From a bacterium (GTDB lineage Bacteria > Sysuimicrobiota > Sysuimicrobiia > Sysuimicrobiales > Humicultoraceae), in contig JBGQGY010000062.1 in assembly GCA_041497675.1 (NCBI GenBank), positions 1 to 21,162 of the forward strand: 21,162 nt of DNA, written 5' to 3'. Of this stretch, positions 1,974 to 20,770 are shown one piece after another. A program made the translations under genes and the position numbers. The number at the start of each line of letters is the position of its first letter. The first letter of the stretch is position 1. The notes under the pieces are model-generated. The model did not search any database and was not told where the DNA came from. It was given only the letters and a program-made list of their open reading frames with translations.

Positions 1974-3925
1974 CCGGGCACGTCCAAAATGTGCATGACC
2001 GGGTGCATCTCCGCGGTGCGACCGTCCTCGTACCGGATCGTGACCGTCGCCTCGAAGTGATCGGCACCGTCGAAGATCGCCTCGATCAGGCCACGATAGC
2101 GCTCGTTGATGTGTCCCCGGCGCAGTTTGCGGGTGCGCGTGAGCTCGTCGTCATCAGGGTGGAATTCCTTGTAGAGTGAGACGAAGCGCTTGATCTTCCA
2201 TTCGGGTTTCAGCCGGCCGTTGGTTTCCAGAACAAGCGCGCGCAGCAGATCCAACACTTCAGGCTTTTGGGACAGGTGTGTGTACGAGGTATAGGAGATG
2301 CCCCGATCTTCGGCCCACTTCCCGACGGTCCGCAGGTCGATGTTCAGGATCGTGGCAAGAAACGGCCGGCCGTCGCCGATCACACACGCTTCCTGAATGT
2401 AGGGCGTGAACTTCAGCATGTCCTCGACGACGCGCGGCGCCACGCTGATCCCATCGGCCATCCGGATCATGTCCCCCACGCGGTCGAACAGGATGACGTC
2501 ACCGCTGGGGTCCAGCGTGCCATAGTCGCCGGAATAGAGCCAGCCGTCTCGCAGGCCTGTGGCCGTCGCGTCGGCGTTTCGATAGTAGCCGAGGAAGACC
2601 GACGGGCTGCGCTCGATGATCTCGCCGTCGCGCGAGATTTCGACCTCCGTACCGGCGATCGGCGCCCCCATGGTCCAGAAGCGCACCTGCCCGTCACGGT
2701 GGACGCACGAGATCCCCGCGATCTCGGTCTGACCGTAGATCTGTTTCAGGTTCAGCCCGATCGCCCGAAAGAACTTGTGGTAATCTGGGCCCAGCGACGC
2801 ACCGCCGTTCCACGCGACCCGCATCCGCACGAGCCCGATCTTGTCCAGGATCGGGCGGTACACGGTCCAGTAATAGATGAAACGCAAGAGACGCAGCCAC
2901 GCGGGGACCGGTTTGCCGTGGGCCTCGAGCTCGACGGCCTCCATGCCCACACGCATCGCCCGATCGTACAGCCGTCGGCGCAGTGGTCCGGCGTCGAGGA
3001 TACGCACGGTGACCGCGGAGTGCAGCCCTTCGTAAATGCGCGCGGGGGCAAAGGTGAAGTGCGGGCCGATCTCACGAAAGTCACGCTGCGCCGTCTCGGG
3101 CGCTTCGGGAAAGTTGACGGTAAACCCGATGGATTGGTGCAGGGTAAACGCAAACATCTGCTCGCCGATCCACGCAAAGGGCAGGTACGAGACAAAGTCA
3201 TCGCCCGGACCGATGTGGGGTTCCACGACGTGGAAGTTTTCGCCCTGGCTCAGCAGGTTGCGGTGCGACAGCATCGCGAGTTTCGGCATCGCGGTGGTCC
3301 CCGACGTCTGGCACAGGATGGCCACGTCGTCTGGGCGGCCCTCGGCCACCAGATCCGCAAAGAGCCGGGGCTCGCGGCCGTCGGTCTGGCGCCCCAGCGT
3401 CTCCAGGTCGGCAAACGAAATCAGCTTGGGGTGGCGGTACTGCCACATGCCCCGCCAGTCCTCGACGATAACCCGTTCCACCGTGGACAGCCGCTCTTCC
3501 ATGTCAAGGATCTTATCCGCTTGTTCTTGATCTTCGCAGAAGACGAACCGGGCACCGGCGAAGCTGATCAATTCGGCCAGTTGCTCGGCTAGGCTGTCCT
3601 GGTACATGCCGCATGAGATCGCGCCGACGGTCTGCGCGCCCATCGCGACGTAAAACTGCTCGGGACGGTTGTCGCCGATGATCATGATGACGTCGCCCCG
3701 GCCCAGACCAAGCGCGTGCAGCCCCAGAGCGGAGGCGCGGGCGTGCTCCAGATACTGCTTCCACGTGATCTGGCGCCAGATGCCGTACTCCTTTTCGCGA
3801 AAGGCGACACGGTCGCCAAACCGCTCGGCGTTCTGGATGAGCCGTTTGGGAAACGTGTCGGGCACATCCACCGCGGCCAGAGTCGCGATGATCCGCGGGC
3901 GGTCCAGGACGGCCTGCGCGGTCAC
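1970..3925 (-). CDS. Long-chain fatty acid--CoA ligase (AMP-binding, FadD/ACSL-like)
   Basis: P-loop QTSGTTAMPK, YGQTE, GWLYSGDYG and C-terminal ELTRTRKLRR; GTG start overlaps the stop of the livG-like gene. Confidence 0.9.
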   Translation of the reverse strand: MTAQAVLDRPRIIATLAAVDVPDTFPKRLIQNAERFGDRVAFREKEYGIWRQITWKQYLEHARASALGLHALGLGRGDVIMIIGDNRPEQFYVAMGAQTVGAISCGMYQDSLAEQLAELISFAGARFVFCEDQEQADKILDMEERLSTVERVIVEDWRGMWQYRHPKLISFADLETLGRQTDGREPRLFADLVAEGRPDDVAILCQTSGTTAMPKLAMLSHRNLLSQGENFHVVEPHIGPGDDFVSYLPFAWIGEQMFAFTLHQSIGFTVNFPEAPETAQRDFREIGPHFTFAPARIYEGLHSAVTVRILDAGPLRRRLYDRAMRVGMEAVELEAHGKPVPAWLRLLRFIYYWTVYRPILDKIGLVRMRVAWNGGASLGPDYHKFFRAIGLNLKQIYGQTEIAGISCVHRDGQVRFWTMGAPIAGTEVEISRDGEIIERSPSVFLGYYRNADATATGLRDGWLYSGDYGTLDPSGDVILFDRVGDMIRMADGISVAPRVVEDMLKFTPYIQEACVIGDGRPFLATILNIDLRTVGKWAEDRGISYTSYTHLSQKPEVLDLLRALVLETNGRLKPEWKIKRFVSLYKEFHPDDDELTRTRKLRRGHINERYRGLIEAIFDGADHFEATVTIRYEDGRTAEMHPVMHILDVPG

Positions 3926-4716
3926 GCGGTGTGCTCCTCGCCGAGGTACGCTTTGATCACACCGGCGTCACGCTGAATCTCACTGGGCGGCCCTTCGGCG
4001 ATTTTCTTCCCGTAGTCCATGGCCACCAGCCGGTCGCAGAGGTCCATCACGACGCTCATGTCGTGTTCAATCAGGATCATCGGCAGCCCGCGCACCTCGC
4101 GCAGTTCCAGGACGAAACGCGCCATATCCGTCTTCTCATCGGCGCTCATGCCGGCCATCGGCTCATCGAGCAGCAGAAGCCGTGGCTCCATGGCCAGAGC
4201 CCGCCCAAGCTCGACCTTTTTTTGGACTCCGTAGGGGAGTTCGGCCACGCGGTGGTTGCGGTACTCTTCCATTTCGAGGAAGTCGATGATCTCTTCCACG
4301 CGTGCCCTGTGGCTGAGGAGCTCGCGTTCAGCCGGACCCCAGTACACTCCGCCGGCCAGCAGGCCGCTGCGCATGTGGATGATACGGCCGGACATGATGT
4401 TGTTCAGTACGGTCATGCTAGGATACAGCGCGATGTTTTGGAACGCGCGCGCGATACCCAGCCTGGCCCGCGCGTGGGGCGGGAGCCGGGTGATGTCGCG
4501 ATTCCCAAAGAAGATTCGGCCTGCCTGAGGACGGTAGAAGCCGTTGATACAGTTCAAGACGCTGGTCTTGCCGGCCCCATTTGGTCCGATGATCCCAAGC
4601 AATTCCCCGGTGTGGAGGGCGCAGGACAGATCGTCGATCGCGGTGATGCCGGCAAACCGCAGGACGAGCCGCTCCACCGTGAGCACGGCGTCGACCAGAG
4701 GGAGGTTGCGCTGCAC
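3922..4716 (-). CDS. livG: ABC transporter ATP-binding protein (LivG-like)
   Basis: Only the C-terminal ~265 codons of ORF 3922..6279 are protein-like: Walker A GPNGAGKT, LPYGVQKKVELGRAL, LLLDEP, IEHDM, AYLG. Start placed at GTG 4716 (alternative GTG 4686). Confidence 0.88.
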   Translation of the reverse strand: MQRNLPLVDAVLTVERLVLRFAGITAIDDLSCALHTGELLGIIGPNGAGKTSVLNCINGFYRPQAGRIFFGNRDITRLPPHARARLGIARAFQNIALYPSMTVLNNIMSGRIIHMRSGLLAGGVYWGPAERELLSHRARVEEIIDFLEMEEYRNHRVAELPYGVQKKVELGRALAMEPRLLLLDEPMAGMSADEKTDMARFVLELREVRGLPMILIEHDMSVVMDLCDRLVAMDYGKKIAEGPPSEIQRDAGVIKAYLGEEHTA

Positions 4717-4723
4717 GCGGATG

Positions 4724-4729
4724 AAGATA
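4724..4729 (-). promoter_or_regulatory. Putative -10 element (TATCTT) of a leaderless livG-operon promoter
   Basis: TANNNT hexamer 7 nt upstream of GTG 4716 on the minus strand; no Shine-Dalgarno sequence before either candidate start. Confidence 0.4.
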
Positions 4730-4781
4730 CGGCCCGGGGTCGCGCGCTTCCTGCCCTGTCCCCGCCCGGCTGGAGGACCGC

Positions 4782-4808
4782 AACTCGGACTCCCCGAACT
4801 CGCACTCC
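4782..4808. repeat. 12-bp direct repeat AACTCGGACTCC / AACTCGCACTCC in the divergent intergenic region
   Basis: Copies at 4782-4793 and 4797-4808, one mismatch, 15-bp period, ending 1 nt before the ATG at 4810. Confidence 0.7.
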
Positions 4809-4809
4809 G

Positions 4810-6057
4810 ATGGACGAGGTCTGGGACCCATCCGAACGATGGTCTCACGAGAGACGCGCCGGGTGGCAAAACCAATGGCTGCGCGAGATCCTCACCGCGG
4901 CGGCCCGCGTCTCGCCGGTCGTTCGCGCGCATCTCGCGGCCGCCGGGGTCGAACCCGCCCGCGTGTCCATCGAGACCCTGGCTTCGCTCCCCGTGTTGCG
5001 GAAGGACTCGCTGCCGGGCCTGCAACATGACGCGCCCCCGTTTGCCGGGTGGCTTGGCGTGCCGGTGGGGCATCTCGCACGGGTGTTCCGCTCGCCGGGC
5101 CCCATCTTCGACCCCGAAGCTCGCCAAGAGGACTATTGGCACTTCGCGCCGGCGCTCTACGCCGCCGGCATCCGGCAGGGTGATCTCACACTTAATACGC
5201 TTTCGTACCATTTGACCCCGGCGGGACACATGATGGATGCGGCGCTGAGGGCGATGGGGTGCCCGGTGGTCCCCGCCGGTCCGGGCAACACCGAGACACA
5301 GGTGCGCGTGCTCGCCGAACTGCCCATCGCCGCGTACATCGGGACACCCAGTTTTCTCGTCACGCTGCTCGAAGCCGCAGCCCAGACCGGCTCGCCTCAC
5401 CATCTGCGGGTGGGATTTGTCATTGCCGAGATGCTGTCCGAATCGTTGCGGGGCCGGCTCGACACGGAGTTTGGGGTCCGGGTCAGCCAGGGGTACGGGA
5501 CGGCCGATCTGGGGTCGATCGGGTTCGAGTGCAGCACGAAGACCGGCATGCACGTCCAGAACGAAGTGATTGTGGAAGTGCTCGATCCGCAGACGGCCAC
5601 GCCGTGCGGTCCAGGCACCCCCGGGGAGGTCGTGGTCACCGCGCTCAACCCAACATACCCGCTGGTGCGCTTCGGCACGGGCGATCTCGCCGTGTGGGCC
5701 GAGGGGCCGTGCGGCTGCGGCCGGACGAGTCCGCGTCTGGCCCGCATCCTCGGCCGCATCGGCGATGCGGTCAAGGTGCGAGGGATGTTCCTGCATCCCG
5801 CCGAGGTCGACCTGGTCATCGCCCGCCACCCGGAGGTGGCGCGCTATCAGGTAGTCGTCACGCGCTCGGGGCACAACGATGCGATGGTCGTGCGCGCCGA
5901 ACTCCGTGCGGGGATCACGGCGCCCACGGACCTGGCCGACCGGATCGCGAACACGCTGGCTGAGATTGTGCGGCTGCGGGGAGAGGTCGAGGTGGTCCCG
6001 GCCGGTACGCTCGCCCCCGACGCGAAGAAGATCGTGGACGAGCGTACGTGGACCTGA
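4810..6057 (+). CDS. Phenylacetate--CoA ligase family protein (PaaK-like)
   Basis: From MDEVWDP within ORF 3931..6057: LPVLRKD, VVPAGPGNTE, YIGTPSFL, QGYGTADLG, PLVRFGTGD, CGCGRT, GRIGDAVKVRG and KIVDER match the PaaK family. Confidence 0.85.
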   Translation: MDEVWDPSERWSHERRAGWQNQWLREILTAAARVSPVVRAHLAAAGVEPARVSIETLASLPVLRKDSLPGLQHDAPPFAGWLGVPVGHLARVFRSPGPIFDPEARQEDYWHFAPALYAAGIRQGDLTLNTLSYHLTPAGHMMDAALRAMGCPVVPAGPGNTETQVRVLAELPIAAYIGTPSFLVTLLEAAAQTGSPHHLRVGFVIAEMLSESLRGRLDTEFGVRVSQGYGTADLGSIGFECSTKTGMHVQNEVIVEVLDPQTATPCGPGTPGEVVVTALNPTYPLVRFGTGDLAVWAEGPCGCGRTSPRLARILGRIGDAVKVRGMFLHPAEVDLVIARHPEVARYQVVVTRSGHNDAMVVRAELRAGITAPTDLADRIANTLAEIVRLRGEVEVVPAGTLAPDAKKIVDERTWT

Positions 6058-6082
6058 TCGGCGGGCACGATGTGGCTGCCGC

Positions 6083-6112
6083 TTGCGCCGACCGGAGGGC
6101 CCGTGGTAGAGT
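6083..6112 (+). promoter_or_regulatory. Putative sigma70-type promoter for the lysA operon
   Basis: TTGCGC (6083-6088), 18-nt spacer, extended -10 TGgTAGAGT (hexamer 6107-6112), about 40 nt upstream of the lysA ATG. Confidence 0.55.
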
Positions 6113-6151
6113 GGCGATGATTTTTGCGTTGTGCGCACACGCCGGTGTCTT

Positions 6152-7492
6152 ATGTTGATTCCCCAACAGCACGGATTCGATGTCGACAACCGCGGCCACC
6201 TGATCGTCGGCGGCATGGACACCGCCGATCTGGCCGCCCGCTTCGGCACGCCCCTGTATCTGATCGATGAAGGCCGCATGCGTGCGAACTGCCGGGCCTA
6301 CGTCGAGGCGATACGCGTCGCGTACCCGGGGCCGGGCCGTGTGGTGTTTGCCGGCAAAGCCCTCTGCACGATCGCCTCCTGTCAGGTGGCGTTCGAAGAG
6401 GGACTCGGGATCGACGTGGTCAGCGCCGGGGAGATCCTGACGGCGCTCCGCGCCGGTGTGCCGCCCGAGGCGCTGTACTTCCACGGCAGCAACAAGACTC
6501 CTGACGAGATCGCCTACGCGCTGGACGCCGGGGTCGGCCGGTTCATGGTGGACAACCAGCATGAACTGGCCACGCTCGACCGCATGGCGCGCGAACGGCG
6601 GACGAGAGCCGACGTCCTGCTGCGGCTGACGCCTGGCATCGAGCCGCACACGCACAAGGCCATCCAGACCGGCGGGGTCGACTCGAAGTTTGGTTTCGGC
6701 ATGCTCGGGCCCGCCGCCGAGGCGGCCGTTCAGGCGGCGCTCGCCGCGCCCGGCATCCGGCTGCGGGGTCTGCACTCGCACATCGGCTCGCAGATCTTCG
6801 ACCTCGATCCCTTCGTGTTGTCGGCCCGCGCGCTCATCTCATTTGCCGCCGAGATGCGCTCGGCCGGCTTCGTCCTGGAGGAACTCAACCTGGGCGGCGG
6901 GTTGGGGATCCGCTACCTTGCCGACCAGGATCCACCGGCCCGCGCGGACTATGTGAAGACTATCGGGGGCGCCGCGTCCGAACTGCTCAAAGGTCACAAT
7001 CTGCCGCTGCCCACATTGATGTTCGAACCCGGCCGCTCGATCGTCGGGGACGCCGGTATCACCCTGTACACCGCGGGCGCCATCAAAACGGTGCCAGGGG
7101 TCAGAACATTCGTCTCCGTCGACGGCGGCATGTACGAGAATCCCCGCCCGGCACTCTATCAGGCGCGCTACGAGACGGTCGTAGCGACCCGCGCGGCGGA
7201 ACGCCCGACCCAGCGCGTGGCGCTGGCCGGACGGTGCTGCGAATCGGGCGACGTGCTGATCTGGGATGCCGACGTGCCGGAGATCCGTGAAGGCGACCTG
7301 CTGGCGGTCTTCGCCACCGGAGCCTACACCTATTCCATGGCGAGCAACTACAATCGCTATGCACGCCCGGCCCTGGTGTTTGTCCGTGACGGCAGCGCGC
7401 AGGTGGCCGTGGAGCGTGAGACCCTGGACGATCTGGTCCGTCTTGACCGGCCGCTGCGGTCGCCGGTCACGCGGACCGGGGCGACGCGGTGA
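6152..7492 (+). CDS. lysA: Diaminopimelate decarboxylase
   Basis: FGTPLYLIDE, PLP-lysine FAGKA, FHGSNK, SKFG, HSHIGSQI, LGGGLG, EPGRSIV, CESGD, GAYTYSMASNYN; ATG 6152 chosen (GTG 6131 alternative). Confidence 0.96.
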   Translation: MLIPQQHGFDVDNRGHLIVGGMDTADLAARFGTPLYLIDEGRMRANCRAYVEAIRVAYPGPGRVVFAGKALCTIASCQVAFEEGLGIDVVSAGEILTALRAGVPPEALYFHGSNKTPDEIAYALDAGVGRFMVDNQHELATLDRMARERRTRADVLLRLTPGIEPHTHKAIQTGGVDSKFGFGMLGPAAEAAVQAALAAPGIRLRGLHSHIGSQIFDLDPFVLSARALISFAAEMRSAGFVLEELNLGGGLGIRYLADQDPPARADYVKTIGGAASELLKGHNLPLPTLMFEPGRSIVGDAGITLYTAGAIKTVPGVRTFVSVDGGMYENPRPALYQARYETVVATRAAERPTQRVALAGRCCESGDVLIWDADVPEIREGDLLAVFATGAYTYSMASNYNRYARPALVFVRDGSAQVAVERETLDDLVRLDRPLRSPVTRTGATR

Positions 7493-10525: not shown

Positions 10526-11095
10526 GTGAAGATTGAACGCGAGCGGTGGGAGGAACGCTACCGGTCCGGCGTTCGACCACACGATGGGATGCCGTCGAGC
10601 CTGCTGCGACGGTGGTTGCCGCGCCTGCCTCGGGGCCGCGCCTTGGACGTGGCGACTGGGCTCGGGCGCAACGCGCTGTGTCTGGCCAAAGCGGGGTACA
10701 CGGTCGACGCGATCGACGTGTCGCCAACCGGTCTGCGGATCGCCGAGACGCGCGCCAGGCGCCGCCGCCTGCGCGTGCGATGGATCGAAGCGGATCTCGA
10801 CACCTACCGGTTGCCGCGCGCACGGTATGCCGTGGTCGTCAACGCGTTTTTTCTCAAACCCGGTCTCTGGCGCGCGCTCAAGGCGTCGGTGCGCCCCGGC
10901 GGCGTCCTGATCTTCGAAACACATCTCGAGAGCGCCACCCCCGACGGCGGTCCCTCGCGGACTTCGCGCCTCCGCCGGGGGGAGCTGAGGAGGCAATTCG
11001 TGAACTGGGACGTGCTCGACCTCGAGGAGGGAGTCTTCCACGAGGGAGGCCGCACGTGGTTGATCGGCAGGATCGTGGCTCGCCGGCCGCGCTGA
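10526..11095 (+). CDS. Class I SAM-dependent methyltransferase (TehB-like)
   Basis: WEERY N-terminus, motif I ALDVATGLGRNA, VDAIDVS, EADL, VRPGGVLIFE; GTG 10526 chosen because the longer ORF overlaps the dac gene. Confidence 0.85.
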   Translation: MKIERERWEERYRSGVRPHDGMPSSLLRRWLPRLPRGRALDVATGLGRNALCLAKAGYTVDAIDVSPTGLRIAETRARRRRLRVRWIEADLDTYRLPRARYAVVVNAFFLKPGLWRALKASVRPGGVLIFETHLESATPDGGPSRTSRLRRGELRRQFVNWDVLDLEEGVFHEGGRTWLIGRIVARRPR

Positions 11096-11946
11096 TTGCG
11101 GCCGTCATCACCGCACTGCTGCTGGCGGGGGCGGTGTGGCCCGCATCCGGCGCCCCGGCATTTCCCGTTACCGTCCGCGACGCCGCCGGCAGGGACATCC
11201 TCATCCCGACCCTGCCGCGCCGTATCGTTTCACTGACGCCGAGCGTCACCGAGATCTTGTTCGCGTTGGACCTCGAGGGTGAACTCGTCGGGGTCAGCGA
11301 TGCCGACGATTACCCGCCGGGCCGGATCACCCTCAAACCCCGCGTCGGTGGGGTCGTGATCAACATCGAGCGGGTGGTGGCGCTGCGCCCGGATCTCGTC
11401 ATCGGCATGCTGAGCCTGCAGCGCGACCAACTCGCGCGGCTCGAAGCCGCGCGGCTCCGAGTGCTCGCCGTCGACGCGGCGTCTGCGGACGACACGCTGG
11501 CCCAGATCCGCCTGTTGGGACGCGCCACCGGCCGCGTACGGCAGTCCGAGGCGGTCGCCAGTCGGCTTGTGCACGACCTCGCCGCGGCCCGCCCGACCGT
11601 GAGACGTTCTGTGTACATCGAGGTCTGGAGCGAACCGCCGATCGCCGCGGCGGCCGGCACGCTTGTTGATGATCTGGTCGCGCGCGCGGGTGGGGTCAAT
11701 GTCTTCGCGGATCTTCGGGGCTATCCTCAAGTGTCCGCCGAAGCCGTCGTCGCCCGAGATCCCCAAGTCATCTTCTTGCTCTACCCGCAGAGCGCGGGGT
11801 TTTCTCAACGCCCCGCGTGGCAGACCATCGACGCCGTCCGCGCCCGCCGGGTTCAGTCGTTGCCGGCCTCGCTGGTCTCCCGGCCGGGTCCACGCATCGG
11901 GCAGGGTCTGGCGCTGATCTCGCGCGCGCTGCAGGGATCCCGTTGA
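11056..11946 (+). CDS. btuF: Cobalamin/iron-siderophore ABC substrate-binding protein (BtuF-like)
   Basis: GGGAGG RBS at 11044-11049 before GTG 11056; signal peptide; FPVTVRDAAGR, RIVSLTPSVTEILFAL, ERVVALRPDLV, AGGVNVF, SRPGPRI. Confidence 0.82.
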   Translation: MVDRQDRGSPAALIAAVITALLLAGAVWPASGAPAFPVTVRDAAGRDILIPTLPRRIVSLTPSVTEILFALDLEGELVGVSDADDYPPGRITLKPRVGGVVINIERVVALRPDLVIGMLSLQRDQLARLEAARLRVLAVDAASADDTLAQIRLLGRATGRVRQSEAVASRLVHDLAAARPTVRRSVYIEVWSEPPIAAAAGTLVDDLVARAGGVNVFADLRGYPQVSAEAVVARDPQVIFLLYPQSAGFSQRPAWQTIDAVRARRVQSLPASLVSRPGPRIGQGLALISRALQGSR

Positions 11947-13427: not shown

Positions 13428-14082
13428 GTTCTGGAGGGGTCTGCTGTGGATCGCCTTCCGGCTGGGGTTTTGGCTCCGCGTGGACGGCCGCGAGCACGAA
13501 CCGGCCCACGGCGCCGTGCTGGCGATCTGCAACCACGTCAGCGCCGTCGATCCGCCGATCGCCGGATGCGCGCTGCGCCGGCAGGCCAGGTACATGGCCA
13601 AACACGAACTCCTCGACACCCCGGTCCTCGGCTGGCTGCTGTGGTCCATCGGCGTCTATCCGGTGCGGAGAGGAGAGCCGGATCGGCGGGCCATCCGCAC
13701 GACCATCGACTGCCTCACCCGTGGAGATCTGGTCGTGATGTTCCCCGAAGGCACGCGGAGCCCTGACGGGCGCCTGATGACGGCCGAGCACGGCGCGGCC
13801 CTGGTGGCGCTTCGGGTAGGCGTGCCGGTGCTGCCAATGGCGGTCATTGGCTCGCAGCACGCGATGCCGAAGGGCGCGAAGTTCCCGCGGCGGGCGCAGG
13901 TCACCGTCCGGATCGGACCGGTGCTCATGGTGCCGAAGGTCGAAGGGCGCATCGATCGCGCGACGCTCGAAGCCTGGGGTGCGCGGTTCATGGCGGCGAT
14001 CGCCGCGCTGCTGCCTGCGGATCAACAGCCGGTGCCGGCGGCGGACTCTACGGGACTTCCTCTTCCCAGCGGTACATCGTGA
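13417..14082 (+). CDS. plsC: 1-acyl-sn-glycerol-3-phosphate acyltransferase
   Basis: HX4D motif NHVSAVD, MAKHEL, PVRRGE, FPEGTRS; classic cmk-plsC adjacency. Confidence 0.92.
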   Translation: MWYRFWRGLLWIAFRLGFWLRVDGREHEPAHGAVLAICNHVSAVDPPIAGCALRRQARYMAKHELLDTPVLGWLLWSIGVYPVRRGEPDRRAIRTTIDCLTRGDLVVMFPEGTRSPDGRLMTAEHGAALVALRVGVPVLPMAVIGSQHAMPKGAKFPRRAQVTVRIGPVLMVPKVEGRIDRATLEAWGARFMAAIAALLPADQQPVPAADSTGLPLPSGTS

Positions 14083-14566
14083 CTCTCAACGGGTAACGGT
14101 ACAGGTTGGGCGCCACACCGTCGTACACGATATCCACTTCGGCCAGCACCGCGCGGTTCTGCATCACGGTGTAGGTGCTGTCGGGGTTGTAGCGGCGCAG
14201 CTCGCCGGTGGAGCGGATGCGCCAGCGGCGCGCCGATGGGGTGCCGGCGCAGTTCAACAGACAGGTCAGCGAGGTCGCAAACCAACGGGTCTGATCGACG
14301 GTCACCGGGTAGTTGGTGTACGCGATCGGTCCCGCATCCTTGTTGTTCTTCAGCAGATAGATCTGGTGCTCGACGCCGGCCTGGGCCAGATAGAGCGCAA
14401 TCGCATCCTGCCGGGTGAGTTGGCCCATCTGCAACTCGGCGATGACCTGCTGCGTGATCCCGGCGACGAGCAACGCCAGGATCAGCGCGACAACCAGCGC
14501 CATGACGAGCGCGACGCCGCGCTCGTCGTTATGGAGCCTGCCGGTACGCGCGCGACGTGAGCACAA
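14048..14566 (-). CDS. PilX/GspK-like minor pilin
   Basis: Class III signal ERG|VALVMALVV lacking Glu5; A.YLAQAGVEH motif typical of PilX N-terminal domains; last gene of the pilin run; TTG start uncertain. Confidence 0.78.
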   Translation of the reverse strand: MCSRRARTGRLHNDERGVALVMALVVALILALLVAGITQQVIAELQMGQLTRQDAIALYLAQAGVEHQIYLLKNNKDAGPIAYTNYPVTVDQTRWFATSLTCLLNCAGTPSARRWRIRSTGELRRYNPDSTYTVMQNRAVLAEVDIVYDGVAPNLYRYPLRVTMYRWEEEVP

Positions 14567-16025
14567 TGTCGGCGACCCCTCCCGTAGGATCCATCACCAC
14601 GAGCGTGATCTCGACCGACCGCACCGCGGCGGCCGGCGCGCAGGCGACGCTCGTTCCAACCGCGTTGTAACACTGAACAGCCATTGAACGGAAGGAACCG
14701 GCCAAGGATTCAAGGACGTCAACGCGTGCACCGTTTTCCTCAGCGCCGACAACAGTTATAGGTTCGGGATCGACGCGCAGCCGGATGATCACCGTCCGGT
14801 GGCGATGCGTCTGGGATACCGCCAGACCATCCACCAGACCGTAGTGCAAACCCGACGCCGCGCCCGCGTGGGTCCCGGTGACCATCCAGGCAGGCTCCGC
14901 CGCACCCACCGCCCAATATTTCGCGCTGAGCGTCGTGCCCACCAGCATCGATCGGCCATAGTAGTCCGCACCGGGAGTGAGTGTGTTCCCGGTGCCGGTC
15001 TGCACGACGACGCTGCCCGCATCGCTCCACGACGTCACATACTTGATGCGCAGCCGATCGTTGGTAGCCTCGGCGGGCGTCACGACGTAGCCGAGCCCCA
15101 CGTCACTGCGCCGTGCGCTCATGCCGACCTGGTGGCGGTTGTTATTGACCGCGGGCGAATCGCTTCGAAATCCCCAGAAGATTTCGACGTTGCCGTGGGT
15201 GAGCGGCTTGCTCAATTCCCGATAGCAGGACGCGGTGGTGGCCGTGAACAGGAATCCGTCGATCGAGGTCGCGTAGGTGCCGCTGCAGGCATCGCGCCGC
15301 GTCCAGCCCGCGAGCGTCGAGCCGTCCTCGTAGTCCAGAAAGACGTAGTCGCCGTTGGCCGGCGGCGTACCGGCCGAGAGGTCTCCGTAGTGCACGTAGT
15401 AGTTGTTGTTCGAACCCCCGGCCGCGATCGGCGCCCGGACGGCAAACCACAGCCGCGTCGTGGTCGTGTTCCATGCCGTTAGAACGTCCTTCACCCGGTC
15501 GAGGTCGATCCATGCGCTCCCGTTCCAATACCGGATGCGGACGTCATCACCCGTAGGCAGGCTCTTGGCCGCCGTCACCAGCGCGGCGTGGTCAAATGTC
15601 AGCAACACAGAATACCCGACGGGGATCGCATTCGCCCCCGCGCTGACCGTGATTCGTCGGCGATAGGCGAAGTCGGCTGCCACCCTGTACTGCAGATCCC
15701 CGGCGACGTTCACCTGGTATTCAACCGTCCGCAGTGCCCCTGTGCCGTCGCCCTGCGCCTGCGTGAAGCGCAGCAGGGTTGGGCTGATGATTGCGAGCGA
15801 CTGCGCGGCGCGCAAATCTCTGACCATCTTATCCAGCGCGCGGCGACCATTCTGCAGCATGTCGACATGGTGATCGACCAGTGACCAGGACTGGCGACCG
15901 ATCTCCAGCAGCGGCACGAGGGTACCGAGGACCAGCACGAGCAGCGATGAGACCACCAGCAGTTCGATCATGGACGTGCCGCGCTCGGCGCGGCGGCGGG
16001 TCGGCCGGCGACGCCGGCACCGCAC
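14529..16025 (-). CDS. PilW/GspJ-like minor pilin with inserted DUF2341-like and lectin-like domains
   Basis: Arg-rich leader then ERG|TSMIELLVV; QNGRRALDKMVRDLRAA helix; C-terminal VRSVEITL strand; large beta-rich insert; start placed at GTG 16025. Confidence 0.75.
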   Translation of the reverse strand: MRCRRRRPTRRRAERGTSMIELLVVSSLLVLVLGTLVPLLEIGRQSWSLVDHHVDMLQNGRRALDKMVRDLRAAQSLAIISPTLLRFTQAQGDGTGALRTVEYQVNVAGDLQYRVAADFAYRRRITVSAGANAIPVGYSVLLTFDHAALVTAAKSLPTGDDVRIRYWNGSAWIDLDRVKDVLTAWNTTTTRLWFAVRAPIAAGGSNNNYYVHYGDLSAGTPPANGDYVFLDYEDGSTLAGWTRRDACSGTYATSIDGFLFTATTASCYRELSKPLTHGNVEIFWGFRSDSPAVNNNRHQVGMSARRSDVGLGYVVTPAEATNDRLRIKYVTSWSDAGSVVVQTGTGNTLTPGADYYGRSMLVGTTLSAKYWAVGAAEPAWMVTGTHAGAASGLHYGLVDGLAVSQTHRHRTVIIRLRVDPEPITVVGAEENGARVDVLESLAGSFRSMAVQCYNAVGTSVACAPAAAVRSVEITLVVMDPTGGVADIVLTSRAYRQAP

Positions 16026-16050
16026 CCTGACCCGAGAGGCGCAGACCGGT

Positions 16051-16461
16051 CTACGGCCGCGACGTGACTTTGGCATCGAACCGCATCTGGTTTTCGGCGG
16101 CGTCACACGCGCCGTTGGCGTTGCCGTCCTGGCAGGCGGTGAGGGCCATGGTCTTGAGCACCCCAACGCCGGTCGTCCCGCTGGACAGTTCCGTCGCGAT
16201 GGTCCACTCGAGCCGACAGGTCGGCAGGTCGGAACAGGTTTCGGCGCCAGAACCCACGCTGTTGATGTCGGCGCGCAGGCGGTTGGTGAGTTCTTCGAGC
16301 TTGCGAACCCCGGCCGCACCTAATCGCAGGTCCGCGTCAGACACTTGCGTGGGACCAAGCGAGCCGGGCAGCAGGACGAGCAAGGGGACTACAGCCACAC
16401 CGATGATGGCCATGGCCACGAGGACTTCGACCAACGTGAAGCCGTGCTCGACACGCCTCAT
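16051..16461 (-). CDS. PilV/GspI-like minor pilin
   Basis: HG|FTLVEVLVAMAIIGV prepilin motif; 136 aa; 4 Cys; start overlaps the upstream stop (ATGA). Confidence 0.85.
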   Translation of the reverse strand: MRRVEHGFTLVEVLVAMAIIGVAVVPLLVLLPGSLGPTQVSDADLRLGAAGVRKLEELTNRLRADINSVGSGAETCSDLPTCRLEWTIATELSSGTTGVGVLKTMALTACQDGNANGACDAAENQMRFDAKVTSRP

Positions 16462-16898
16462 GGACCCGTCACCGTCACGCGTCCGGTGGCCGCGATCACC
16501 TGCACGACGGCCGTGGAGCCACCCGATGTCAGCGTCACGCTTCCGCCGACGACCGCCGTCCCATCCGATCTGAACTGAAACTGCAGCTGCCCAGACACCG
16601 AGACCCCCGGATCAAAGGTCCTCGGGAAGTCGGGTTCCGCCGGCCCCCCCGATGCGTGCACCGAATATTGCGTGTAGGGCGCCGTGGTCGGGGACATCTC
16701 CAGCAGATACTCCACGTGTCTGGCGATGGCCAGCCGCTGGGCCAGCCTGAGATCGGCGGCCAGCTGACGCGCCGGCACCCGCACCACGATCGTCGTGGGC
16801 ACGACGACACGCGGGAACGCCATCAGCGCCAGGACGAACAATATCGCGCTGACCGCCAGCACTTCGGCGAATCCGAACCCCCGTTGACCGCGGCTCAT
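16458..16898 (-). CDS. FimT/GspH-like minor pilin
   Basis: RG|FGFAEVLAV prepilin motif; QLAADLRLAQRLAI helix; FRSDG and terminal TGRV typical of FimT/GspH. Confidence 0.83.
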   Translation of the reverse strand: MSRGQRGFGFAEVLAVSAILFVLALMAFPRVVVPTTIVVRVPARQLAADLRLAQRLAIARHVEYLLEMSPTTAPYTQYSVHASGGPAEPDFPRTFDPGVSVSGQLQFQFRSDGTAVVGGSVTLTSGGSTAVVQVIAATGRVTVTGP

Positions 16899-16913
16899 GC
16901 GAGCCCGCGCCTG

Positions 16914-16942
16914 ACGCCGGCGCTACCCGGTCTGGCCGGCGT
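16914..16942 (-). other. GC-rich stem-loop immediately downstream of the major pilin stop
   Basis: ACGCCGGC (16914-16921) / GCCGGCGT (16935-16942), perfect 8-bp stem, 13-nt loop, no U-tract. Confidence 0.55.
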
Positions 16943-17322
16943 TAGTGCCCCACACCGGTATCGTGGTTCACACCGCCCGCGCTCATCTGCACGCGGCAGA
17001 TCGCCGCGCTGTATGTGTTCACGTATGGCGTGGCTATCCCGTTGCGCGGGTCCGTCGGCGTCCCATCCGGAAAATACGTGGTGTTCCCCAGGAATGCCGT
17101 GAACGCGGCCGCGTCTGCCGGACAGCCGTTGTTCCGATATTGGTACAGCGCCAGCGCCGAGTTGATCGCGCGGACGTTGGCCATGTCCGCCGTACGGCGC
17201 GCATCTTGCTCCGCTCCAAAATAGTTCGGCAGGGCCACCGCGACGAGCACTCCAAGGATGAGGATCACCGCCAGCACTTCGACGAAGGTGTATCCATTTT
17301 CTGTTCCGTGCTTCCCGTCCAT
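16942..17322 (-). CDS. Probable major type IV pilin / pseudopilin (PilA/ComGC/GspG-like)
   Basis: NG|YTFVEVLAVILILGVLVAVALPNY; NVRAINSALALY..NGCP; one Cys pair; strong RBS GGGGAGGT; first pilin after pilC. Confidence 0.88.
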   Translation of the reverse strand: MDGKHGTENGYTFVEVLAVILILGVLVAVALPNYFGAEQDARRTADMANVRAINSALALYQYRNNGCPADAAAFTAFLGNTTYFPDGTPTDPRNGIATPYVNTYSAAICRVQMSAGGVNHDTGVGH

Positions 17323-17363: not shown

Positions 17364-18572
17364 TTATCTCGTCAGCGTTCTCGCGAGCCCAAAGATCGGT
17401 AGATAGAGCGCCAGCAGCACGCCCGCTACCAGCGCACCCAGCACCAGCGTCAGCGCCGGCTCGGCAAGTGTCACGAGCCGCTTAATCGCGTGGTCGACGT
17501 CCCGGTCGAGCAGGTCCGCCGCGCGTTGCAACATGGTATCGAGCCGTCCCGACTCTTCACCCAGGGCCACCATCCGCGGTACAAGCGGTGGGAACAGACT
17601 CAATGAACGCATGACCTCGCTCAACCGTCGGCCCCGGCTGACGCCGTCCCGCAGGTGTCCAACCGCTTCGTGGAGCCTCGGGTCGGCGAGCGCCTCGGTG
17701 GTCACGTTCAACGCGACCAGCACCGGCACACCGCTCGTGTACATGGCCCCAAACGTACGGACGAACCGGCTGACCTGGACAAAGCGTGCGACCGCGCCCA
17801 CCCTGGGAATGCGCCGCAACAGCCCCGCCGCTGTCTGGCGCACCACCTGCCACACGCGCGCCCGCCCGGCGCCCCAGACGGCAACGCCGGTGACGACGGC
17901 TCCCGGCAGCCAGAAGCGCCTGACCAGGTGGCTGATCTGGACCAGGATCTGCGTCGGCAGCGGCAACGCGGCGCCGGCGGATCGGTAGACGCGCTCGAAT
18001 GCCGGGACGACGAACACCACGAAGAGCCCGACCACGACCACCGACAGCGTGACCACGATGGCCGGGTAGACGAGCATAGACCGTACTTTCTGGTTGAGGG
18101 CGACTTCGCGCTCGAGATAGTCGTTCAGCCGCCGGAGCGCCTGGTCGAGCGACCCGGCTACCTCGCCGCTCCGCACGATCCCCAGATACAGGGGTGAGAA
18201 AATCGCGGGGTGGCGCGCCATGGCGCCCGACAGGCTGTGTCCCGACTGGATGGCGTCTTCCAGATCGCCAATGACGGCCCGCATTCGCGGGTGCTCCGTC
18301 TGCTCGCGCAGCACCTCGAGACCGCGCAGCAGCGGCACCCCGGCCTCCGTGAGGCCCGTGAGATGAAAGGTGAAATCTTCCACCGCTTCGAGTTCGACGC
18401 CGCTGCTGACCCAGGACCGGAGGAGACGGGGCCGTTGGGCTGCGAGCGAGGTGACAAACAGGCCGCGCTCGCGCAGCCGCGACCGGGCCCGGCTATCATC
18501 CTCGGCCTCGATGACACCGCGCACGGGCAGACCGCCGCCGTCCCGTCCCTTGAACTCGAACACCCGCATCAT
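17364..18572 (-). CDS. pilC: Type IV pilus / T2SS platform protein (PilC/GspF family)
   Basis: FEFKGRD..G N-terminus, AGVPLLRGL, SGEVAGSL, MLVYP, LPLPT, GEESGRL, LAEP, LYLPIF; ATG 18572 chosen. Confidence 0.93.
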   Translation of the reverse strand: MMRVFEFKGRDGGGLPVRGVIEAEDDSRARSRLRERGLFVTSLAAQRPRLLRSWVSSGVELEAVEDFTFHLTGLTEAGVPLLRGLEVLREQTEHPRMRAVIGDLEDAIQSGHSLSGAMARHPAIFSPLYLGIVRSGEVAGSLDQALRRLNDYLEREVALNQKVRSMLVYPAIVVTLSVVVVGLFVVFVVPAFERVYRSAGAALPLPTQILVQISHLVRRFWLPGAVVTGVAVWGAGRARVWQVVRQTAAGLLRRIPRVGAVARFVQVSRFVRTFGAMYTSGVPVLVALNVTTEALADPRLHEAVGHLRDGVSRGRRLSEVMRSLSLFPPLVPRMVALGEESGRLDTMLQRAADLLDRDVDHAIKRLVTLAEPALTLVLGALVAGVLLALYLPIFGLARTLTR

Positions 18573-18582
18573 GCGACGCGCC

Positions 18583-20490
18583 TCAGTCAAGCCCGGCGAA
18601 CACGACCCGCCGGACCTCGTCCAGACTCGTGGAGCCCTCCACGATCTTGGCGATCGCCGCGTCACGCATCAACTGCATGCCCGCCCGCGCGGCTTCGCCA
18701 CGGATGGCTCCGGCCGAGCGGCGCTGGAGGATCATCTCGCGGATGCCGTCGGTGATGCGCATGATCTCGAAGACGCCCGTGCGTCCCCGGTAGCCGATGC
18801 GGTTGCAGTCGGCGCACCCCTCGGGGACATACAGCGTCACGTCTGCGGACGGATCGAGGTTCATCTCGCGCAATTGCTCGGGGGACGCCCGGACCGGCCG
18901 CTTGCACGCCGCACAGAGCGTCCGAATCAGCCGCTGCCCGACAGCGGCCAGCAGGGTCGACGTAATGAGGAAGGGGTCGACGCCCATATCGATCAACCGC
19001 ACCACCGCGCCCGCGGCATCGTTGGTGTGGAGCGTGCTGAGCAGCAGGTGACCGGTGAGGGCGGCCTGCACCGCGATCTGCGCCGTCTCGGCGTCCCGCA
19101 CTTCGCCCACCATAACGATGTCCGGATCGTGGCGGATGATCGACCGCAAACCGGCGGCAAAGGACACCGCCATCTTTGAACGCACGGCAATCTGCGTGAT
19201 ACCCGGCAGGTGGTACTCCACCGGGTCCTCAATCGTCATGATGTTGCGTGACGTGTCGTTGATACGGCTGACGCACGAGTAGAGGGTCGTAGTCTTGCCA
19301 CACCCCGTGGGTCCGGTGACCAGGATCATGCCGTAGGGTCGGCCCATCAGCCGGTCGAGCTCGGCCTCCTGCTCTAACAGGAGGCCGAGACGCTCCAGAC
19401 CCAGCAGCACGCGGCTCTTGTCCAGGACGCGGATCGTCACCCGTTCGCCAAAGCTCGCGCCCACACTCGCCATGCGGAGATCGTGCTCGCGCCCGCCCGC
19501 TTCATAGAGGAGCCGGCCGTCCTGTGGCCGGACGCGCTCTGCGATGTCGAGACCGGCCAATGCCTTGAGACGAGAGGTGACGGCGGCGCCGACGCCGCGC
19601 GGCACACGGGTGCGTTCATGCAACAGCCCGTCCAGCCGGTAGCGGACGACGGTGCCGTCGGATTGTGGCTCGATATGGATGTCGGTCGCTCCCTCGCGCA
19701 CCGCGCCCTTGATGAGCGAGTCGACCAATCGCACCACTGGGGGATCGTGGGGCGAGTCGCTGGCCGATACCGCGGTCAGCTCGTCCTCGATCACGTCCAC
19801 AGTGCCGGCGGTGTCCACCGTAGCGCCCGCGGCCTCCGCCATGTCGAGGTGCGACACCAGCACCCAGGCGAAGTCCTGTTCGGTCGTAAAGAACGGCCGG
19901 ATCCGCGCCCGTAGCAGCGCGGCCAGATGATCGATGGCCACGACGTCGGTCGGATCGACCATCGCCACGTGGACCTCGCGGCCGACGCGTGCGAACGGCA
20001 CCACCCGATGCTCCATGATCACCGCCGGTGGGATGCTCCGCAGCAGCGTCTCATCGATGCGGGAGGTCGCCAGGTTGACATAGGCGGTACCCCGCTGCGT
20101 CTGGAGCGCCTCGCCCAGGGCCTGTTTGGTGATGAACCCGCGGCTGCTTAGAATCTGACCGAGACGTTCGCCGGTCTTGGCCTGTTCGGCCATCGCTTCT
20201 TCGAGTTGCACCGGGGTGATGAGCTCGCTTTCGATCAGCAGATCGCCAAGCCGCCTTTGTTTGGCGTTGTTCAGATAGGCGGGGTGAGATCCGTCCACCC
20301 GCCGCACCGCCGCGCCGGCGGTCACCAGATCTTCGAGCGCGGCCTGAACGGCTTCGAGCGGCACTTCGAGTCGGGTGGCGACGGAGTCTGCGGTGTGCGG
20401 CCCGGGTTGGTGGATCTGCAGATAGGCCTGTACCCGTCGACGCAACTGTCCGACGGGGTTGTCCGGCAGGGTCAGGCGGGCACCTGACAC
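18583..20490 (-). CDS. pilB: Type IV pilus assembly ATPase (PilB/GspE family) with N-terminal wHTH-like and MshEN domains
   Basis: ATDIHIEP, RPQDGR, Walker A GPTGCGKTT, TIEDPVEY, DPDIVMVGEVRD, His box TGHLLLSTLH, Zn motif CAAC...CADC, GYRGRTG; GAGGA RBS before GTG 20490. Confidence 0.95.
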   Translation of the reverse strand: MSGARLTLPDNPVGQLRRRVQAYLQIHQPGPHTADSVATRLEVPLEAVQAALEDLVTAGAAVRRVDGSHPAYLNNAKQRRLGDLLIESELITPVQLEEAMAEQAKTGERLGQILSSRGFITKQALGEALQTQRGTAYVNLATSRIDETLLRSIPPAVIMEHRVVPFARVGREVHVAMVDPTDVVAIDHLAALLRARIRPFFTTEQDFAWVLVSHLDMAEAAGATVDTAGTVDVIEDELTAVSASDSPHDPPVVRLVDSLIKGAVREGATDIHIEPQSDGTVVRYRLDGLLHERTRVPRGVGAAVTSRLKALAGLDIAERVRPQDGRLLYEAGGREHDLRMASVGASFGERVTIRVLDKSRVLLGLERLGLLLEQEAELDRLMGRPYGMILVTGPTGCGKTTTLYSCVSRINDTSRNIMTIEDPVEYHLPGITQIAVRSKMAVSFAAGLRSIIRHDPDIVMVGEVRDAETAQIAVQAALTGHLLLSTLHTNDAAGAVVRLIDMGVDPFLITSTLLAAVGQRLIRTLCAACKRPVRASPEQLREMNLDPSADVTLYVPEGCADCNRIGYRGRTGVFEIMRITDGIREMILQRRSAGAIRGEAARAGMQLMRDAAIAKIVEGSTSLDEVRRVVFAGLD

Positions 20491-20494
20491 GAGG

Positions 20495-20731
20495 CTATGG
20501 TCCTCTGCGACGCTTGCTGGCGGGACCCGCGCGCTGCGACCGCCGGGCTGATGGGTTGCCGGTGCCGTTGGACGTCAACCAGCGGTCGATGTGGTCTTTG
20601 TGGAAGCGCCAGACCCGTCCGATTCTCACCGCGGGCAGGCGGCCGCGGTGGATCATCCGATAAATCGTGATGTCGTGGACCCGCAGGTAGCGCGCCACGT
20701 CCTTGACGGTCATCATCGTTGCGAGTCGCAC
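20495..20731 (-). CDS. Excisionase-like / MerR-superfamily helix-turn-helix protein (HTH_17, BldC-like)
   Basis: MMTVKDVARYLRVHDITIYRMIHRGRLPAVRIGRVWRF..IDRWL with a basic tail; start uncertain (GTG 20731 with GGAG RBS; ATG 20746 or 20716 possible). Confidence 0.9.
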   Translation of the reverse strand: MRLATMMTVKDVARYLRVHDITIYRMIHRGRLPAVRIGRVWRFHKDHIDRWLTSNGTGNPSARRSQRAGPASKRRRGP

Positions 20732-20770
20732 GACGCCTGCTCCCATCGCCGTACCGGAATGATCCTGCAC

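Follow-up and report, generated by a model that had tools for sequence, protein, structure and literature searches.

What might a winged-helix (WH) domain do at the front of a type IV pilus motor? This question is raised by a pilB gene in a 21,162-nt stretch of DNA (hereinafter designated the window), whose product is predicted to carry such a domain ahead of its c-di-GMP-type MshEN module (Table 1). In PilB-type motors, the N-terminal region is where c-di-GMP and separate cofactors exert control. A WH built in beside the site for c-di-GMP would represent a new means of connecting a type IV filament machine with an input or a partner.

Translation and predicted fold of the N-terminal extension

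The segment singled out in the preliminary description, 20272..20448 on the minus strand, corresponds to residues 15-73 of the 635-aa open reading frame, and the quoted peptide is present there. Orthologues of the same length are 86-93% identical and have an identical start, and several orthologues have purine-rich sites upstream of the conserved start comparable to the Shine-Dalgarno-like site of the window. The preliminary description left room for the segment to be absent from orthologues; instead, 17/17 orthologous loci keep an in-frame start that precedes the first RLG motif by 71-82 codons. The dN/dS of codons 2-76 is 0.15-0.53 in 9/9 pairs. The conserved start and these dN/dS values indicate that the extension is not a chance extension of the reading frame. 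Judged from these comparisons, it is translated and under purifying selection.

Although the window pilB has in-frame GTG or TTG codons at residues 16, 43, 56, 62, and 65, it is very improbable that the extension is an annotation artefact with translation from one of them, because they are not conserved as starts among orthologues, because amino-acid conservation, dN/dS <1 and a confident fold all span the region upstream of them (which contradicts a start at the GTG near residues 56-62), and because one orthologue has a stop codon one codon upstream of the conserved start.

In the AF2 model from the 17-sequence alignment, the extension contains three helices (H1, residues 12-26; H2, residues 34-41; H3, residues 45-58), a short strand (S1, residues 32-33), and a hairpin (residues 61-66 and 69-74), the wing, which ends at the conserved Tyr72. 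Confidence in the model of the WH domain is moderate, with mean pLDDT of 76.4 and no residue reaching 90. The WH elements are identical in the full-length AF2 model (61 sequences), which has a pTM of 0.54 and is uninformative on the placement of the WH relative to the rest of the protein. Thus, the three-helix bundle with H2-turn-H3 followed by a β-hairpin wing is present in both models. The pLDDT of the N-terminal tail is below 50 at residues 1-3 in the former model and at residues 1-11 in the latter.

Only winged-helix proteins are among the top matches listed by Foldseek against the PDB, and two matches have E ≤1e-3. They include ArsR, MarR, Z-alpha, and the WH of HOP2, with TM of about 0.7. 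The best compact matches have TM of 0.6-0.74 and rmsd of 1.1-1.7 Å over 62-65 columns; specifically, ArsR (6j05) has TMq of 0.74 and rmsd of 1.3 Å over 63 columns. The best Pfam match is TrmB (PF01978), which scores 25.7 bits against the domain alone and 21.5 bits against the whole protein, with a cut-off of 25.6. Look-alikes of residues 1-79 in the ESM Atlas are small standalone wHTH clusters with scores of at most 0.79, and serve as leads only. The models and the Foldseek matches bear out the proposal that a winged-helix-like domain precedes MshEN as an in-frame fusion: residues 12-74 are predicted, neither as disordered nor as another fold, but as a genuine winged helix directly before the MshEN motif pair.

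The H1-S1-H2-H3-hairpin topology is that of the DNA-binding WH domains of TrmB, ArsR-SmtB, and MarR (Pfam HTH clan). Unlike those, the WH described here is carried by an ATPase rather than a regulator, its acidic H3 has none of the basic or polar residues that read DNA, and the dimerisation helix pair of ArsR or MarR is missing. The preliminary description likened it to the C-terminal WH of DprA (PF17782), which is also a small WH on a non-regulator protein of a DNA-uptake-related pathway. This likeness was not sustained. PF17782 scores 14.3 bits (E 0.042; cut-off 22.9), no DprA structure is among the listed Foldseek matches, and the resemblance is that of the generic fold only.

The putative recognition helix is acidic, as had been claimed, with a net charge of -1 to -4 in 17/17 orthologues. 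Among 61 sequences, the acidic fraction is 0.30-0.75 at positions 46, 47, 49, 51, and 53, and the exposed positions of H3 are acidic, with a basic fraction of at most 0.15. The net charge is -2 to +2 for the wing and -6 to +2 for the whole domain, being zero or negative in 13 of the 17 orthologues. The basic or polar recognition helix and wing of DNA-binding wHTH regulators are absent. Because H3 is acidic in every orthologue, the WH is unlikely, by its sequence, to read DNA classically through this helix.

Conservation within the WH is highest at core residues (L16, A34, A38, L52, L55, and G59), and no invariant polar surface patch is seen across the 61 sequences. Basic residues are conserved at positions 17-19 (0.51-0.82), 63-64 (0.57-0.64), and 77-80 (0.54-0.84), the last being the R/K-rich family consensus of the linker. 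The resulting basic strip (R17-19, R63-64, and residues 77-80) could bind nucleic acid, lipid or nucleotide instead.

Table 1. Coordinates of pilB, the parts of its product, and the neighbouring genes in the window
Feature	Coordinates	Strand	Basis or remark
pilB, whole gene	18583..20490	-	635-aa PilB/GspE/MshE-type assembly ATPase; GTG start; N-terminal extension, predicted winged helix
Residues 1-11, N-terminal tail, poorly conserved	20458..20490	-	Predicted disordered; variable columns
Residues 12-74, predicted winged-helix domain	20269..20457	-	AF2 models, Foldseek, TrmB 25.7 bits, conservation
Residues 75-79, short basic linker NAKQR, joins wing to first c-di-GMP motif	20254..20268	-	
Residues 80-132, MshEN_N module	20095..20253	-	NF053729 63.8 bits, cut-off 38 (NCBIfam)
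Residues 134-219, remainder of MshEN/N1 domain	19834..20091	-	Pfam PF05157 E 1.7e-18
Residues 249-628, T2SSE ATPase core (N2 and C-terminal domain)	18607..19746	-	PF00437 E 1.8e-120
Shine-Dalgarno-like GAGGA	20501..20505	-	10 nt upstream of pilB GTG start; read from sequence
Small excisionase/MerR-like HTH_17 gene, basic C-terminal tail	20495..20770	-	PF12728 E 6.9e-19; TIGR01764
PilC/GspF-type platform gene, downstream	17364..18665	-	PF00482 E 6.4e-58; longest ORF overlaps pilB end
Major-pilin-like gene	16942..17322	-	Pilin gene of same operon
GspH-like pilin gene	16458..16898	-	Same operon
Pilin gene	16051..16461	-	Same operon
Large pilin-like ORF	inside 14529..16319	-	Same operon
PilX_N-like pilin gene	14048..14566	-	Same operon

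The motor and its operon

The MshEN_N module contains two 24-residue c-di-GMP-type motifs separated by a 5-residue spacer (R80..Q103, AKTGE, R109..Q132) and is predicted as four helices (residues 81-87, 93-106, 110-116, and 122-133) in the full-length AF2 model. Measured against the published motif (PMC5013675), each motif of the window PilB departs from the strict form once: motif 1 has Glu instead of Gly at position 10, and motif 2 has Ser at position 7. Among 51 WH-bearing relatives with the motif pair located, motif 1 is strict in 3 and motif 2 in 15; these statistics are partial, as the pair was located in only 61 of the 121 PilB clusters. By its sequence, the MshEN of the window PilB may bind c-di-GMP.

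The T2SSE core scores 402.5 bits against PF00437 (gathering score 24.9), with identical coordinates in the genome search. The Walker A motif GPTGCGKT is at residues 393-400, and C526, C529, C559, and C562 are invariant in 61 sequences; the tetracysteine of PilB-type ATPases forms a zinc site according to a PilB review (PMC11656802). The scores for the PilB (TIGR02538; 538.4, cut-off 675.65) and GspE (TIGR02533; 538.8, cut-off 630.25) equivalogs both fall below cut-off, so the subtype (T4aP, Com-like, or T2SS-like) is left unassigned. TIGR02538 aligns only from residue 81, leaving about 79 extra residues, and in eight PilB clusters that lack the WH and have the motif pair close to the N-terminus, 7-39 residues precede the first RLG motif. 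Both results agree with the earlier statement that PilB, GspE, and MshE proteins normally begin at MshEN/N1.

The upstream HTH_17 gene ends with a stop codon at 20495..20497, 4 nt short of the pilB start. The true start of this HTH_17 gene is probably internal to its open reading frame, judging from orthologues, which begin near residues 13-19. Downstream, PilC is present in 20/20 loci, and in the window its real start is probably an ATG near 18572. The pilin genes (14048..17322, minus strand) have N_methyl, GspH, and PilX_N matches and class III signal-type N-termini. No PilMNO or secretin genes are found within the window. We read the window pilB as the gene for the extension ATPase in a compact operon for a type IV filament, comprising an HTH_17 regulator, the ATPase, the PilC platform, and one major and four minor pilin-like genes.

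Public sequencing runs labelled as RNA contain only 0.04-0.05 of the sampled words. Short contigs from public runs, with about 95% identity, cover parts of the HTH_17 gene and pilB, and one of 246 nt spans the junction of the two; the RNA label of its source run is a guess, and the contig demonstrates neither transcription nor an operon.

Distribution and loss of the winged helix

The WH domain is present in 25 of the 94 species genomes of the phylum Ca. Sysuimicrobiota (CSP1-3), with profile matches of 63-106 bits; the next best match has 28 bits. Each of the 25 lies in an open frame of 547-778 aa, except two cut at contig ends. Of the 121 closest PilB protein clusters, 64 have the domain, at the extreme N-terminus. 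When 1.84 billion protein representatives were searched with a profile, the WH-MshEN fusion was recovered only as one protein (P0011) and truncated fragments of its family. The fusion is restricted to this one phylum. A word-indexed search with residues 1-80 returned four relatives, a number that reflects its limited sensitivity, since 64 clusters carry the WH. Residues 1-135 as query matched three genome loci and no metagenome contig.

No standalone WH copy scores above 28 bits in the 94 genomes, and a separate WH gene joined to pilB by an assembly or annotation artefact was rejected. No architecture with a WH or HTH on PilB or MshEN was found in the open-access papers searched, and the word "winged" has no match in the PilB review (PMC11656802).

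One genus has deleted the WH in frame, with differing deletion lengths and the gene kept (P0162, P0167, and P0172), indicating that the WH is dispensable in that genus. The genome of the window encodes two further PilB paralogues, a TPR-MshEN-T2SSE form of 778 aa and a canonical form. Other N-terminal add-ons among PilB homologues are REC (P0256), TPR (P0249 and P0270), and DUF4388 (P0178). Such add-ons probably give paralogues of PilB-like ATPases separate inputs.

Possible roles of the winged helix

The WH keeps its hydrophobic core, and the helix that would read DNA is acidic. We read it from these two features as a non-classical docking or regulatory module, which would bind protein rather than DNA. 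The N-terminus of the ATPase has acquired a WH, joined by a basic linker of 5-6 residues to the four-helix c-di-GMP-type module, and the WH would give this PilB paralogue a partner of its own, such as the platform, a cofactor or a neighbouring subunit. This could be influenced by c-di-GMP bound at the adjoining MshEN module, which would couple nucleotide and WH binding. Our leading candidate, held with as much doubt as confidence, is that the pilus motor senses c-di-GMP and that its WH is a docking or regulatory module specific to this lineage and paralogue.

The WH could instead have no specific ligand and be a lineage-specific structural cap, now being lost, that stabilises or solubilises MshEN or aids ring packing. 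The conserved WH positions are mostly core residues, the dN/dS of the WH region (0.15-0.53) exceeds that of the ATPase core (0.075-0.23) in 8/9 pairs, the in-frame deletions in one genus look independent, and the WH is absent from 69 of the 94 phylum genomes. However, two families of the phylum have kept the WH, along with the acidic H3 and the start, at 16-59% identity, and its dN/dS is clearly below 1 in 9/9 pairs. We regard this explanation as rather unlikely.

Slightly less likely again is that the WH binds nucleic acid, either DNA (for regulation or for uptake by a Com-like pilus) or RNA, through the basic strip rather than H3. The strip comprises the start of H1, the wing, and the linker, with conserved basic positions in each, and most structural neighbours found by Foldseek are DNA-binding WH proteins. 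Competence pseudopilus operons contain an ATPase, a platform, and pilins and no PilMNO, a layout that the window operon resembles. Against this, H3 is acidic throughout the 17 orthologues, the charge of the domain is zero or negative in most of them, and no DNA-binding family model passed convincingly, the TrmB score straddling its cut-off. In addition, the c-di-GMP motif begins with Arg, and the basic residues 77-80 lie in this motif or directly beside it.

A bolder reading makes the WH the working face of a c-di-GMP switch: nucleotide on MshEN would re-orient the WH, and the motor would capture or release a partner (the HTH_17 regulator, nucleic acid or the platform). If true, an uncultured phylum would have a direct connection from pilus assembly to gene regulation or DNA handling. 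We consider it a long shot.

The preliminary description proposed that the WH docks the upstream, excisionase-type HTH_17 protein, coupling the motor to transcription. The acidic H3 and the basic HTH_17 tail are electrostatically complementary, and HTH_17 adjoins or overlaps pilB (-14 to +4 nt) in 9/17 WH-bearing loci, suggesting coupled expression. Gene order lends the proposal no support, however: the other eight WH-bearing loci (L020-L027) have no HTH_17 neighbour, while a further locus (L015) retains HTH_17 although its pilB has no WH. Upstream of pilB, five of the eight (L020, L022, L023, L024, and L026) have a divergent gene of the L7Ae family, as does L021 when judged by eye, whereas L025 has a GDP-mannose dehydratase and L027 a GH3 fragment. 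Small HTH_17 genes heading operons are ordinarily plain regulators. Complex prediction of the WH with HTH_17 gave a score of 0.00 and a mark of 0.32, which count neither for nor against binding. Docking of HTH_17 is, on gene order, a poor prospect.

The docking or regulatory module that we favour can be set beside three known systems. Vibrio cholerae MshE and MshEN-bearing PilB and GspE proteins share with the window PilB the T2SSE core, MshEN, the 24-5-24 motifs, the tetracysteine, and an operon with PilC and pilins. The first c-di-GMP motif of MshE starts at Arg9 (PMC5013675), whereas here it starts at Arg80, after a complete WH domain, as predicted.

According to the PilB review (PMC11656802), cofactors such as PilZ and FimX are known to bind the N1/MshEN region of PilB, where PilM contacts are inferred as well. 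PilB-PilZ-FimX control in X. citri and P. aeruginosa likewise uses the N-terminal region of PilB as a docking site for c-di-GMP-linked regulators. Those regulators are separate proteins, whereas the window PilB carries its potential docking module as a fusion in cis. The review also describes an enlarged N-terminal region in Thermus PilF (PMC11656802). Thermus PilF, the REC-, TPR-, and DUF4388-bearing homologues, and the TPR paralogue of the window genome are all extension ATPases of otherwise standard make-up with an accessory module placed before MshEN; the module added here is a WH, found in none of those.

The words pili, pilus, and PilB were not found in the main text of two CSP1-3/Sysuimicrobiota phylum papers, and no pilus biology is described for this phylum. 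In this phylum of soil and hot springs, which lacks a cultured member, the WH sets one of three PilB paralogues apart. Until a partner has been identified, its practical value is modest. The WH is a small, well-defined domain that is easily expressed.

A winged helix ahead of the MshEN domain

The N-terminal segment described preliminarily lies within the 635-codon, GTG-initiated pilB frame, and the peptide quoted from it is found there (table below). The c-di-GMP motif domain matches NCBIfam NF053729 with 63.8 bits (cut-off 38), while the alignment to the PilB equivalog model TIGR02538 starts only at residue 81. Thus, about 79 residues precede the usual beginning of the ATPase. In contrast, the first motif of V. 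cholerae MshE begins at Arg9 (PMC5013675), and in eight homologue clusters that lack the winged helix (WH) and have the motif pair near the N-terminus, the first MshEN motif lies at residues 7–39.

Features of the pilB region and of other frames in the window
Feature	Nucleotides (strand)	pilB residues	Basis
pilB	18583..20490 (-)		ORF
WH segment	20272..20448 (-)	15-73	preliminary description
H1		12-26	AlphaFold2
Two-residue strand		32-33	AlphaFold2
H2		34-41	AlphaFold2
H3		45-58	AlphaFold2
Beta hairpin		61-66 and 69-74	AlphaFold2
MshE-type c-di-GMP motif domain		80-132	NCBIfam NF053729
MshEN		134-219	Pfam
T2SSE		249-628	Pfam, E 1.8e-120
HTH_17 gene	20495..20770 (-)		
Prepilin-type frame	14529..16319 (-)		596-codon ORF
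Peripla_BP_2 frame	10546..11946 (+)		466-codon ORF
ABC ATPase frame	3922..6279 (-)		785-codon ORF

The AlphaFold2 model of residues 1–79, built on a 17-sequence alignment, has a mean pLDDT of 76.4. The full-length model (61 family members; pLDDT 79.1, pTM 0.54) contains the same WH elements followed by four MshEN_N helices at 81–133, with a disordered linker at 217–238. Among the matches listed by Foldseek against the PDB, all are winged-helix proteins, including ArsR 6j05 (TMq 0.74, RMSD 1.3 Å over 63 columns), the HOP2 WH 2mh2, Z-alpha 1qbj, MepR and other MarR proteins, only two matches having E ≤1e-3. The top Pfam match is TrmB, with 25.7 bits for the domain alone against a cut-off of 25.6 and 21.5 bits for the whole protein. 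The domain is, as modelled, a winged helix that falls into no established subfamily. The fusion of a winged-helix-like domain ahead of MshEN, as first described, is thus borne out by the predicted elements and the listed matches, while the proposed likeness to the DprA C-terminal winged helix is not, the DprA_WH model scoring 14.3 bits, below its cut-off of 22.9.

Distribution and loss

Orthologous pilB genes were gathered from 20 related genomes, and 17 of the 20 loci carry the extension. A WH profile gives strong matches (63–106 bits) in 25 of 94 species genomes of the phylum, namely 19 of 34 in the family of the window and six of seven in a single genus belonging to a second family; the next best score in any of the 94 is about 28 bits. 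The strong matches sit in open frames of 547–778 aa, except two that end at contig edges, and the profile finds no standalone copy in these 94 genomes. The relatives that carry a name are metagenome-assembled genomes (MAGs) assigned to Candidatus Fervidifonticultor (Ca. Sysuimicrobiota, formerly CSP1-3). Of the 121 protein clusters nearest to the ATPase part, 64 have the WH, in every case at the very N-terminus. In one family member of 860 aa (P0177), the WH is followed by two MshEN domains ahead of the ATPase, so remodelling of this N-terminal region is still going on in the family.

Against 1.84 billion representative proteins, the profile has 361 matches at E ≤1e-3, among which the WH-MshEN-ATPase layout is confined to P0011 and to truncated fragments from its own family. 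The remaining strong matches are generic small wHTH proteins and proteins in which numerous WH repeats in tandem are joined to NHL or LamG domains. Three proteins (P0007, P0008 and P0016) carry 4–8 tandem repeats resembling the PilB WH (…TAxxLAxxLGxPxxxVQxALDxLxxxGxV…GRYG…), fused to NHL repeats or Laminin_G_3; outside PilB, no proteins are closer to the WH than these, and their architecture is itself unusual. A metagenomic protein of 121 aa (P0010) is near-identical to the WH of the window over its first 75 residues and continues into unrelated sequence with no MshEN; a chimeric contig, a frameshift or a rare standalone form might each account for this.

Within a single genus of the window's family, the WH core has been lost through in-frame internal deletions of three lengths (P0162, P0167, P0172; loci L015, L016). 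The start (MSPASQ...) and the wing end and linker (...YAPT.TQKRLG) are kept in two of the three, and only the start and linker remain in the longest. The pattern suggests that the domain is still being lost, and the WH is dispensable in this genus. We consider it unlikely that the WH is a structural cap with no ligand that is disappearing.

Searches of an open-access library turned up no PilB/GspE/MshE ATPase described as bearing a winged helix. The MshEN paper, in the part available, names ATPase, glycosyltransferase and "other domains" as fusion partners and has no mention of HTH (PMC5013675), the accessible text of a 2024 PilB review has no mention of "winged" (PMC11656802), and the main text of the two CSP1-3 genome papers has none of pili. 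The WH is real and cleanly delimited, yet it is small, belongs to the commonest fold class, has no demonstrated ligand and is confined to one uncultured phylum.

Possible partners of the winged helix

The N1/MshEN region of PilB-type motors binds c-di-GMP and docks trans-acting cofactors (PMC11656802), and N-terminal add-ons among the homologues include REC, TPR and DUF4388. The genome of the window encodes two further full-length PilB paralogues, on contigs C3 (L001:334-2670) and C85 (L002:868-2712); one begins with a TPR region, followed by a Pro/Ala-rich spacer ahead of MshEN (778 aa), the other is canonical, and the three differ mainly at the N-terminus. Because of these three observations, we give an even chance to the WH being a lineage- and paralogue-specific docking or regulatory module. 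It is fused beside a predicted, probably functional c-di-GMP pocket.

The acidic "recognition helix" of the preliminary description proves to be a family trait, with a net charge of H3 of −1 to −4 in 17/17 orthologues (−6 to +2 for the whole WH). Exposed H3 positions 46, 47, 49, 51 and 53 are 30–75% acidic and at most 15% basic among 61 sequences. Judged from sequence, such charges count against H3 reading DNA in the classical way but are no proof of protein binding. The same 61 sequences conserve a basic strip (R17-19, R63-64 and linker 77-80), whose target may be nucleic acid, lipid or the adjacent nucleotide site. That the WH is a docking module rather than a DNA binder, as first proposed, is an inference; nucleic-acid binding through the basic strip is, in our estimate, quite unlikely.

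The operon comprises, in order, the small, excisionase-type HTH_17 gene, pilB, a PilC-type platform gene, a major-pilin-like gene and four more prepilin-type genes. Housekeeping genes (ScpA/ScpB, cytidylate kinase, ABC transporters) lie farther out on both sides, and no PilM/N/O, PilT or secretin gene is found within the window. HTH_17 ends 4 nt ahead of the pilB start in the window and in nine of the 17 WH-bearing loci the two genes abut or overlap (−14 to +4 nt), which suggests translational coupling. The other eight have unrelated genes upstream: five have a divergent L7Ae-family gene and a sixth resembles them by eye, one has a GDP-mannose dehydratase gene, and another has a GH3 fragment; ribosomal protein S12 lies past the L7Ae gene in the one locus tested. 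One locus with a WH-less pilB still carries HTH_17. Gene order therefore lends no support to docking of the WH to the upstream HTH protein, as first proposed, and we consider such docking very improbable. The HTH_17 protein has a conserved Arg/Lys-rich C-terminal tail (window and loci L010-L019).

Start codons and reading frames

All 17 extension-bearing orthologues have an in-frame ATG, GTG or TTG 71–82 codons 5’ of the first RLG motif, and GAGGA lies 10 nt 5’ of the pilB GTG start. At locus L026 a stop one codon ahead of the conserved start makes a longer frame impossible. The internal GTG/TTG codons of the window's pilB (residues 16, 43, 56, 62 and 65) are not kept as starts in orthologues. 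For codons 2–76, dN/dS (Nei-Gojobori) is 0.15–0.53 in 9/9 pairs, synonymous sites being near saturation in the more distant ones, and 0.15, 0.22 and 0.26 in the three least diverged, compared with 0.075–0.23 for the ATPase core. The conserved 5’ start and these ratios contradict the downstream start considered earlier, and a mis-called start with an untranslated extension is scarcely credible.

The annotated GTG start of HTH_17 is probably too far upstream. In the prepilin-type frame, the hydrophobic segment does not appear until about residue 117, and translation therefore probably begins at an internal codon; a large minor-pilin-like body (~470 aa) with weak DUF2341 and Cadherin_5 hints follows, and the product is possibly a tip adhesin. 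The ABC ATPase domain and Peripla_BP_2 occupy only residues 549–709 and 227–442 of their respective frames, which either have long N-terminal parts without assignment or are over-extended ORF calls in GC-rich DNA.
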